From the IMG/VR virus record IMGVR_UViG_2778261154_000002: a stretch of DNA of 14,117 nt. One strand, 5' to 3'. Origin of the DNA: a virus. Its lineage: Duplodnaviria > Heunggongvirae > Uroviricota > Caudoviricetes. Positions 12,058-14,117 of the stretch are shown here, piece by piece (the stretch's first letter is position 1; every line of letters begins with the position of its first letter). Below the pieces are notes generated by a model that saw only the letters and a program-made list of their open reading frames with translations, did not search any database and was not told the origin of the DNA. The position numbers and the translations under genes were made by a program.

Positions 12058-12254
12058 CCTTCAATAGCCTGCCGGGTGGTGAAGATTTTATTCTTCGTCC
12101 GGCGCTTGCCTTCCATATTGACCAGAAAGATCTTAACAGTGGTGCGGTAGATCTCTGTCGCATCGCGCTTCTTAATGACTACCTTGATATGTGCGAGGAC
12201 AACGATGTCCGGGTAGAAAAATGGAGAGAGGATAATGAACGCCGAGACTATTAA
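11605..12254 (+). CDS. Tail assembly chaperone, predicted -1 frameshift fusion product (GT-like, ~217 aa)
   Basis: Slippery T_TTT_TTG at 12006-12012 is in register with the chaperone frame (codons AAT TTT TTG). The -1 frame is open from 12012 to a TAA at 12252-12254 (81 codons) and has no start codon of its own. It fills the otherwise non-coding 177-nt gap before the tape measure gene. Confidence 0.5.
12006..12012 (+). promoter_or_regulatory. Candidate -1 programmed ribosomal frameshift slippery heptamer (TTTTTTG)
   Basis: XXXYYYZ heptamer read directly from the sequence, in the correct register relative to the chaperone ORF. Confidence 0.5.
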
Positions 12255-13431
12255 AGATTTCCTCGTCTCGCTTGGCTTCAGTGTGGATGATGCAGGAGCG
12301 AAAAAGTTCGGTTCTGTCCTCGCCGGTACAACTGCAAATGTCATCAAAATGGGGCTGGCTGTTGAAGGAGCTGCGCTGTCCGTGGTGGCCTTCACGGCTA
12401 AGATCGCCTCCGGTCTGGATAATCTTTACTGGGCGTCACAGCGCACCGGCGCGACAGTCCAGGGAATTCAGTCTATTGGCTATGCGGTTTCGCAGGTTGG
12501 CGGCAGCGTGGACGCTGCGCGATCTTCTCTGGAAAGCCTCTCCCGGTTTATTCGTAACAATCCCGGTGCAGAAGGCTTTCTGAATCGCCTGGGCGTACAG
12601 ACCCGTGATGCCAGCGGTAACATGCGTGACATGGCCGCTATTTTTACTGGTGTAGGCCAGAAGCTCAGCGGTATGCCGTATTACCGGGCTAACCAGTATG
12701 CGCAGATGCTGGGCATTGACGAAAATACCCTTATGGCTATGCGTCGCGGAGTGGGGCAGTTCAGCGCTCAGTATTCAGAAATGGTGAAAGCGATCGGATT
12801 TAATGCCGATCAGGCTGCCTTATCGTCAAACCGGTTTATGACCTCGCTGAAATCGCTCGGTGAAATGGCCGGGATGGCGCGGGACAAAATCGGATCGAAT
12901 CTTGCGGACGGACTGGCGGGGCAGATTGATAACCTGCGCAAAAAGATAATTGAAAATTTTCCCAAAATTGAAGTCACCATCACAAAGGTCATAAAGGGGA
13001 TCCTCTGGCTGGGTGAGATAGTCGGGCGGGGTGCATTCCGGATAGTCGATGGTGTCGGAGATATCATCGAGTGGTGGGGGAAACTGGATGCCGAAACGAA
13101 AACCCTGATAGAGGTTATCGGCGGTCTGGTTGTCGCCATGCGGATACTTAACTCTACTTTCTGGATGTCACCTATAGGGCTGATTACCGGTCTGATCGTG
13201 GCTCTCGGTCTCTTGTGGGAAGACTACAAAACATGGAAAGAAGGCGGTAACAGTCTTATCGACTGGGAAAAATGGCAACCAGCAATAGATAAAGCGAAGG
13301 ATGCGATCACCTGGCTTCGTGATCACCTTCTGGAACTAAAAGATGGTGTTGGCGGCTGGCAAAATGCACTGGAAATCCTCGGTACATTCATCGCGGGTGT
13401 CTGTACTGACCCCAAAAAGTTGGACAGTTAA
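12235..13431 (+). CDS. Phage tail tape measure protein, N-terminal fragment truncated by IS insertion (probable pseudogene)
   Basis: ORF with GGAGAGAGG RBS and tape-measure-like sequence (helical N-terminal region, hydrophobic segments near residue 300). Codons 1-389 (12235-13401) look native. The last 9 codons and the stop (13402-13431, CTDPKKLDS*) are read from the terminal inverted repeat of the downstream IS element. 398 aa is short for a myovirus tape measure. Confidence 0.7.
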   Translation: MNAETIKDFLVSLGFSVDDAGAKKFGSVLAGTTANVIKMGLAVEGAALSVVAFTAKIASGLDNLYWASQRTGATVQGIQSIGYAVSQVGGSVDAARSSLESLSRFIRNNPGAEGFLNRLGVQTRDASGNMRDMAAIFTGVGQKLSGMPYYRANQYAQMLGIDENTLMAMRRGVGQFSAQYSEMVKAIGFNADQAALSSNRFMTSLKSLGEMAGMARDKIGSNLADGLAGQIDNLRKKIIENFPKIEVTITKVIKGILWLGEIVGRGAFRIVDGVGDIIEWWGKLDAETKTLIEVIGGLVVAMRILNSTFWMSPIGLITGLIVALGLLWEDYKTWKEGGNSLIDWEKWQPAIDKAKDAITWLRDHLLELKDGVGGWQNALEILGTFIAGVCTDPKKLDS

Positions 13432-14117
13432 ACACGAGGCATATAGGTCTGATTCCGATATTCAATTGGAGTCAGACCTTTTAATTTCAGGCTAATTCTT
13501 CTGCTGTTGTAGTATTCAATATATTCCGTAACAGCATCCTTCAGTTCGCTTATATTACTGAACTCATCAAGATAAAAACACTCCGACTTTAAGGTTCCAA
13601 AGAAACACTCCACCACAGCATTATCCAGACAATTGCCTTTTCTGGACATGCTTTGTTTAATACCATGTTCTTTAAGGATATTTTGATATCTTCTCATACG
13701 ATACTGCCATCCCTGGTCAGAGTGCAGAACAGGATGCTCGTGAGGATTAAGCTTTTTGAATGCCTGATCGAGCATATTCTCAACCATGTTCATCACTGGT
13801 CTTTCCGAAAGGCTGTAAGAAATAACTTCGTTGTTGAAGAGATCTATTACTGGAGACAAATACAGCTTGCGCCCATTGACTGCAAATTCAGTAACATCGG
13901 TAACCCACTTCTCGTTTGGCCGCGTAGCCTTGAAATCTCTTTGGAGAACATTAGGGGCGGTTTGCCCTACCTCTCCTCTGTAAGAGCGGTATCGCTTGAC
14001 CTTAATCGCTGCTTTAAGTGAGAGGGTTCCCATCAGGCGCTGAACAGCTTTATGGTTAATCTGTTTCCCTTCTCGATGAAGAGACAGCGTTACCCTACGG
14101 TATCCGTATCGGCCTCT
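13402..14117 (-). mobile_element. IS3-family insertion sequence (IS150-like), partial; continues beyond the right window edge
   Basis: An IS3-family orfB transposase occupies 13428-14117 on the minus strand. The nearest TG-initiated terminal sequence past the orfB stop begins at 13402 (TGTACTGACCCCAAAAAGTTGGAC), consistent with the TG...CA ends of IS3-family elements. The boundary is an estimate, roughly +/-20 bp. Confidence 0.75.
13428..14117 (-). CDS. IS3-family transposase OrfB (DDE integrase core), 5'-truncated by the window edge
   Basis: Translation from the window edge reads [44 protein letters not shown]..., then [16 protein letters not shown] and [14 protein letters not shown] (the D, D, E catalytic region), ending [19 protein letters not shown] with a stop at 13428-13430. 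From memory it closely resembles IS150 InsK. Confidence 0.9.

Follow-up and report, generated by a model that had tools for sequence, protein, structure and literature searches.

Does the last open reading frame (ORF) in this run of tail genes encode an unusually short tape-measure protein, or is it the front part of a longer gene that has been cut by a mobile element, and if the latter, what would that mean for the virus that carries it? The question arises in a 14,117-nucleotide stretch of DNA from IMG/VR record IMGVR_UViG_2778261154_000002 (Caudoviricetes), here called the window, in which a tail gene of 398 codons runs into what looks like the end of an insertion sequence (IS). An earlier note on this DNA, made from the sequence by itself, had proposed that an IS3-family, IS150-like element interrupts the tape-measure gene and leaves a probably tail-defective prophage. 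Following up that proposal in complete genomes, long assemblies and profile databases, we arrive at a more specific reading, to which we give a probability of about 95%: IS150 has inserted into the tape-measure gene of an ipaH-bearing myovirus prophage, as one step in IS-driven decay.

A tape-measure gene with full-length relatives

The tail genes of the window all lie on the plus strand. A tail sheath gene (10005..11150; phrog_205, E 3.9e-135; DUF3383, E 1.3e-100) is followed by a tail tube gene (11161..11601; KPP10_Orf10 at E 1.7e-60 in a Pfam scan, with Phage_Tube_PhiTE as the precomputed Pfam label) and by a tail assembly chaperone gene (11605..12057; Phage_TAC_15, E 4e-31; phrog_1688). 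A slippery T_TTT_TTG motif at 12006-12012 would give the chaperone a -1 frame extension within 11605..12254 (+), that frame containing no stop codon from upstream of the slip site as far as 12254, and PGAP annotates a 30-aa 'DUF6889' protein there. Such a chaperone frameshift pair is the usual arrangement directly upstream of a tape-measure gene, and the interrupted gene begins at 12235, after the sheath, the tube and the chaperone pair, with baseplate genes coming next in both VL40 and FDAARGOS_944.

The 5' part of the gene, codons 1-389 of 650, occupies 12235..13401 (+). Uninterrupted copies are present in the IS-free FDAARGOS_943 and FDAARGOS_944, the latter with a gene of 1953 bp and 650 aa that PGAP names 'lytic transglycosylase catalytic'. 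Over residues 1-648, the intact 650-aa product is a match for phrog_2276 'tail length tape measure protein' (E 1.1e-252), and several further tape-measure PHROGs match it too. PhageMin_Tail (Pfam; 23.4 bits against a cut-off of 33.2) and TIGR01760 (20.8 against 28.8) stayed below threshold, and scans with Pfam and NCBIfam returned no SLT domain in the protein. The full-length match to phrog_2276 and the position between chaperone and baseplate genes bear out the identification of the gene as a tape measure.

Homologues in phages are of similar length to the intact gene product: 661 aa in Escherichia phage vB_EcoM-606R2, whose structural module is almost collinear, 667 aa in Klebsiella phage ST340-VIM1phi10.1 and 669 aa in Salmonella phage SEN34 (genus Brunovirus), with other phage homologues aligning out to residue 644-650. 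Some phage alignments are limited to residues 1-370 or 1-485; in both of these classes the gene proved to be complete, encoding 667-669 aa with a C-terminus that has diverged, and such partial alignments reflect mosaic C-termini and not short proteins. A related gene occurs in 311 complete E. coli genomes and, among the matches listed, all that reach the insertion site cross it unbroken. A naturally short tape measure, for which IS-free relatives would have to encode an intact protein of about 390 aa with the same last residue, was looked for and not found: no homologue ends near residue 390, those measured have 650-669 aa, and the IS-free relatives have 650 aa. Alignment of the fragment to intact homologues places its native part at codons 1-389 of 650. 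The earlier note had called the 398-aa product short by comparison with the 381-aa sheath; that conclusion was right but its reason was weak, as sheath length is uninformative on tape-measure length.

The element that begins at 13402 is IS150

In the program-made ORF list and its translation, the ORF at 12235..13431 (+) consists of 398 codons and a stop. Its first 389 codons (window 12235-13401) are identical to the intact FDAARGOS_944 allele, and divergence starts at 13402, from where the window reads TGTACTGACCCCAAAAAGTTGGAC and, over a longer stretch, TGTACTGACCCCAAAAAGTTGGACAGTTAA. Set against the intact protein, 13402..13431 (+) supplies nine IS-encoded codons, CTDPKKLDS, and a TAA stop at 13429-13431, which overlaps the stop of the minus-strand orfB at 13428-13430. 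Two details of the earlier note, 389 native codons followed by an IS end with a stop nine codons on, and an opposite-strand orfB ending at 13428, thus stand when compared with the FDAARGOS_944 allele and the translation.

Positions 13402..14117 hold the 716 bp at the right end of IS150, with the transposase on the minus strand, at 99.5-100% identity to annotated IS150. A megablast search with 13380-14117 against 5,426 complete E. coli genomes matched 3,418 records, 3,317 of them at >=99% identity, and every match fell on a feature that bears the annotation 'IS3-like element IS150 family transposase'; given 99.5-100% identity over 716 bp to annotated IS150 across 3,418 records, this is therefore no chance match. 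The terminal 24 bases (13402..13425; TGTACTGACCCCAAAAAGTTGGAC) form the right terminal inverted repeat, 18 of these 24 outermost bases matching the other end in inverted orientation. Next to it, the 3' part of orfB, which encodes the DDE transposase domain, spans 13428..14117 (-), and a Pfam scan of its 229 in-window codons matched rve (E 1.9e-29), rve_2 (E 2.7e-22) and HTH_21 (E 6e-11).

The window is a draft contig broken off at 14,117 by the IS repeat, after 716 bp of the element, and the other 727 bp lie beyond the contig end. The missing end, which the earlier note had asked for, is found in VL40, where the complete element measures 1443 bp (L001 15168..16610), the canonical IS150 length, and has the ends TGTACTG...CAGTACA. 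This copy carries an orfA of 173 aa, an A_AAA_AAG slip site (AAAAAAG) at element position 530 and an open orfB frame, and PGAP annotates the IS150 transposase coding sequence with a programmed frameshift. Near-identity, a length of ~1.4 kb with imperfect TG...CA repeats, an orfA/orfB -1 frameshift, an rve domain and a short target duplication, the features by which the IS150 family is recognized, were all found; the IS150-like element of the earlier note is IS150 itself.

Just inside the IS, a consensus scan picked out a hairpin of 15 pairs followed by a T-rich run (13445..13479, +), which could terminate transcription arriving from the phage late operon and might thereby add to polarity on the baseplate genes. 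Sites found by the promoter and terminator scan of the IS were no more numerous than in shuffled sequence, and we treat the hairpin at 13445-13479 as a lead only. An Rfam scan of the window found nothing.

The junction, the duplication and the empty site in other genomes

The intact site in FDAARGOS_944 reads GGGTGTCTGGGTATCC (in the longer stretch used for side-by-side comparison, GCGGGTGTCTGGGTATCC) and has one GTC. At the occupied site in VL40, GGGTGTC is followed by IS150 and then by GTCTGGGTATCC, and GCA_900450175.1 reads likewise; at base resolution, the left junction in VL40 passes from GCGGGTGTC into TGTACTGACC and the right junction from GGTGCAGTACA into GTCTGGGTATCC. The window holds the left GTC copy at 13399..13401, and the right copy lies beyond the window end. 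The 3-4 bp target-site duplication that the earlier note had said to look for is accordingly present, as GTC on both sides of IS150 in VL40 and GCA_900450175.1. A 5-bp duplication (GTCTG) is a formally possible reading of the same bases; we read the duplication as 3 bp because of the TG...CA termini and the 1443-bp length.

A contig of this kind could also be the product of misassembly, with phage sequence wrongly joined to a repeated IS and the source strain retaining an uninterrupted gene. In favor of this, the contig is a draft of the short-read type whose end falls in a multi-copy repeat, and IS150 occupies a median of 2 places, and up to 10, per IS150-bearing genome. However, the 5.05-Mb chromosome of VL40, from which the window differs by only 2 SNPs in 14,117 bp, contains the same junction together with the far IS end, the duplicated GTC and the rest of the gene, and the same features recur within a 4.62-Mb contig of GCA_900450175.1. 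Two independent long assemblies with an identical junction for practical purposes rule out an assembly chimera, and we consider its probability negligible.

How widely the insertion is shared can be read from the same searches. When the ORF was searched by megablast against complete E. coli genomes, all 1197 of its bases were matched at 100% in VL40 (NZ_CM177011.1), and the junction was present in just 1 of the 5,426; more than 100 other genomes match ORF bases 1-1169 only, their alignments ending at the IS start, and FDAARGOS_943 and FDAARGOS_944 are 100% identical over these 1169 bases. An exact-sequence look-up placed the 398-aa fusion protein on at least 6 contigs, among them NJNE01000099.1 of GCA_002467185.1 and the 4.62-Mb contig of GCA_900450175.1, which shows that the insertion is common to a small clonal set of strains.

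The severed half of the gene

The earlier note had predicted that the rest of the gene would be found beyond the IS, and so it is: in VL40 and GCA_900450175.1, the 3' remnant lies directly beyond IS150, in frame and open over 261 codons, with 786 of 789 positions identical to the intact allele. Neither gene half has acquired a stop, and each has hardly diverged from the intact gene, which marks the insertion as recent. The C-terminal part missing from the fusion product is 261 residues long, and the break falls between ILGTFIAGV and WVSKVLGAFGK, with a Kyte-Doolittle hydrophobic peak at residues 387-390. Further along, residues 489-611 resemble a solved endolysin (PDB 7q47_A; E 5e-5, a weak sequence match), phrog_873 'endolysin' matches residues 407-649, and phrog_7182 'tail injection transglycosylase' also matches; the 3' remnant alone returned no Pfam match. 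The PHROG matches and the one weak PDB match suggest that the lost part holds an endolysin-like peptidoglycan-hydrolase domain as well as most of the hydrophobic segment.

An open remnant invites the thought that the two halves could still function as a split gene, the 398-aa product serving as a shorter tape measure, perhaps for shorter tails, and the lysin-like part being translated separately, possibly from a TTG-initiated ORF of 247 aa in the remnant (L001 16656..17399). In phage lambda, in-frame deletions in the tape measure gpH do give shorter tails. Yet no homologue is split at this point, all those measured being single proteins of 650-669 aa with an end-to-end profile match, and the break lies inside a hydrophobic segment. 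The halves are moreover separated by a 1.4-kb IS with its transposase on the opposite strand, the RefSeq annotation of VL40 (PGAP) calls both of them pseudogenes with the IS150 transposase between, and the baseplate J gene of VL40 is broken as well, by IS2. We therefore think it very unlikely that the halves work as a pair, and prefer to read the IS150 insertion as a disruption of the gene.

A step in the decay of an ipaH-bearing prophage

We propose that a complete, apparently functional IS150 transposed into codon 389/390 of the 650-codon tape-measure gene, duplicating the 3-bp target GTC. The recipient would have been a lambdoid/SEN34-like myovirus prophage with a Brunovirus-type structural module and ipaH at its right end. 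The reading frame comprises 389 native and 9 IS-encoded residues, the C-terminal 261 being lost, and the insertion is a recent one that is common to a small clonal strain group.

In long-tailed phages, polymerisation of the tube on the baseplate is nucleated by the tape measure; when a truncation takes away one end of this protein no tail is assembled, whereas an internal deletion that keeps the frame yields a shorter tail. The IS150 insertion alone should therefore probably block tail formation: lacking a full-length tape measure, the prophage would not build tube and sheath on its baseplate, and this lesion by itself would leave it without infectious particles. The IS may also lower transcription of the baseplate genes beyond it, a polar effect that is uncertain because lambdoid late transcription is antiterminated.

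The setting in VL40 is that of a prophage with many lesions. This prophage measures ~52 kb from its integrase to ipaH, which marks the right end; it has lambdoid early and lysis regions (Rha, replication protein P, tRNAs, a class II holin and RrrD) and a SEN34-like structural module. Besides IS150, it carries seven further complete IS: three IS1A, two IS600 (one in recE and one in a DUF1627 gene), an IS4 in a regulator gene, and an IS2 in baseplate J, beside a fragment of another IS3-family transposase gene. Because of these seven additional copies, including the IS2 in baseplate J, we regard the IS150 insertion as one of many in a degrading prophage. The tail-fibre gene is truncated in VL40 and also in the IS-free FDAARGOS_944, and GCA_900450175.1 has another IS3-family element in the next-but-two tail gene. 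Within the protein cluster of the tape measure itself, one member (P0014) acquires an IS1-like tail (GNAANLLI) after codon 413, another (P0015) is frameshifted after ~codon 392, and a third (P0011), present on 27 contigs, is frameshifted near codon 475; these are independent inactivations of the same tape-measure gene. As read from the genes, the lesions of a defective prophage are present: IS150 in the tape measure, IS2 in baseplate J, IS600 in RecE, IS4 in a regulator, and the truncated tail fibre.

Lesions of this number raise the prospect that the prophage was already inactive before IS150 arrived, in which case the insertion would have been a neutral event in dead DNA and the locus would persist for its ipaH cargo. 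Seven more complete IS in recombination, regulatory and baseplate genes, a tail-fibre truncation common to VL40 and FDAARGOS_944, a sister assembly that carries another, different IS in a tail gene further downstream, and the repeated breakage of the same gene elsewhere all point that way. On the other hand, the remaining structural genes of the window are all intact and share their protein accessions with the relative. We regard this prospect as evenly balanced; it refines the explanation by IS-driven decay and does not contradict it. The IS150 insertion is neither the sole lesion nor necessarily the first, and may have been neutral when it occurred.

The intact genes in the window bear on a further suggestion in the earlier note, that the remaining head genes are kept for some other reason. 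If selection did retain the structural module, either because the head genes or the truncated tape measure serve the host or because ipaH needs phage late transcription, IS150 would have disarmed the tail while the rest was kept. We found no supporting evidence for this, intactness and near-identity fit a recent insertion equally well, and we hold such retention to be highly improbable. Decay of the prophage through successive IS insertions, this one included, is the reading that we carry forward.

Significance

The insertion is an ordinary event that involves a known element and a known process, and it is present in the RefSeq annotation; the literature that we searched contained no paper on this specific IS150 insertion. 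Three practical points follow for those who use these records: (i) the 398-aa ORF is a tape-measure pseudogene that has been truncated, and is to be labeled as such in place of a short 'lytic transglycosylase'; (ii) the inducibility of this ipaH-carrying prophage cannot be assumed; and (iii) the shared junction is a clonal marker for a small lineage that includes VL40, GCA_900450175.1, GCA_002467185.1 and a few others. One study notes IS-driven pseudogenisation in Shigella (PMC8072062), and ipaH copies have been described as surrounded by prophages and pseudogenes (PMC9046306). The present insertion adds a further case to the prophage decay driven by IS that is typical of Shigella/EIEC-type genomes.

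Comparison with known systems

Three known systems resemble this locus, each in a different part. The structural module is that of the SEN34-like temperate myoviruses (Brunovirus; SEN34, vB_EcoM-606R2 and Klebsiella phage Mulock), which share the order sheath, tube, chaperone, tape measure and baseplate, and whose tape measures are 59-81% identical in protein to the prophage gene in their N-terminal part; unlike in those phages, an IS interrupts the prophage gene at codon 389, and the C-terminal third is mosaic among relatives. The inserted element corresponds to IS150 of Escherichia coli (IS3 family, IS150 group) in its termini, reading frames, slip site, rve domain, 3-bp duplication and >=99% identity, and differs from it in its insertion site alone, just 716 bp being held in the window. 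The surrounding prophage shows the pattern of prophage decay in Shigella and enteroinvasive E. coli: phage genes are interrupted by IS1, IS600, IS4 and IS2, and ipaH stands at the end of the prophage.

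Interruption of the tape-measure gene and decay of related prophages

The last 716 bp of the window (1-14117) are IS150 sequence and, because the window stops inside the element, the seemingly missing 3' remainder of the tape-measure gene reflects an assembly break at a repeat and not a genomic feature. Just within the right end of IS150, a consensus scan predicts a plus-strand hairpin of 15 pairs followed by a T-rich run (13445-13479), contained in the stretch where the opposite strand encodes the 3' end of orfB. This predicted hairpin could halt transcription entering IS150 from outside.

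The tape-measure gene has also been inactivated separately in other strains, represented by further members of its protein cluster. P0014 ends after codon 413 in GNAANLLI, which looks like the end of an IS1 element, and frameshifts occur after about codon 392 in P0015 and near codon 475 in P0011, the latter being present on 27 contigs.

Lesions extend beyond this gene in the prophages that carry the IS150 junction. The prophage of E. coli VL40 holds seven additional complete IS copies (L001 21224-23948; L003 13652-34052, both VL40 loci): an IS2 in the baseplate J gene, adjoining a partial copy of a further IS3-family transposase gene, together with two IS600, one IS4 and three IS1A. Though the record is named E. 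coli, this IS set is typical of Shigella/EIEC, and the prophage carries an ipaH effector gene at its right end. In GCA_900450175.1, a second assembly with the junction, an extra IS3-family element (L005 10358-12665) splits a 346-aa tail gene two genes downstream; as this gene is whole in VL40, decay is proceeding independently within the IS150-bearing lineage. Nor is the "IS-free" prophage of FDAARGOS_944 thereby intact, since its 184-aa structural gene is frameshifted (L002 10300-10853; the window copy, 8533..9087, is intact).

Gene content and annotation

A gene for a DedA-family (VTT domain) membrane protein (288-800), on the opposite (minus) strand, separates the lysis cassette from the packaging genes; it is kept in the IS-free relative and looks like a moron. 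It is followed on the plus strand by a 254-aa ORF with weak helix-turn-helix matches (995-1759), overlapping the PBSX-type large terminase gene (1602-3113) at its 5' end, for which PGAP places the start at about 1710 versus a mechanically called TTG at 1602. In the related Escherichia phage vB_EcoM-606R2, the position of this ORF is occupied by the terminase small subunit.

In the uninterrupted tape-measure protein, residues 489-611 (L002 15465-15833, in FDAARGOS_944) resemble an endolysin of known structure, 7q47_A (E 5e-5). This C-terminal part also matches PHROGs for endolysins and transglycosylases, but a Pfam SLT match is absent. The PGAP label "lytic transglycosylase catalytic" fits the C-terminal domain alone and obscures the tape-measure role.

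Immediately upstream, the tail assembly chaperone gene and its -1 frame extension span 11605-12254, with a T_TTT_TTG slip heptamer at 12006-12012 and the -1 frame open as far as 12254. PGAP annotates just the final 30 codons of that frame, naming them a "DUF6889 family protein" in its own right. They probably encode the C-terminal end of a chaperone product made by frameshifting, which would overlap the tape-measure start and which we liken to G/GT of lambda.
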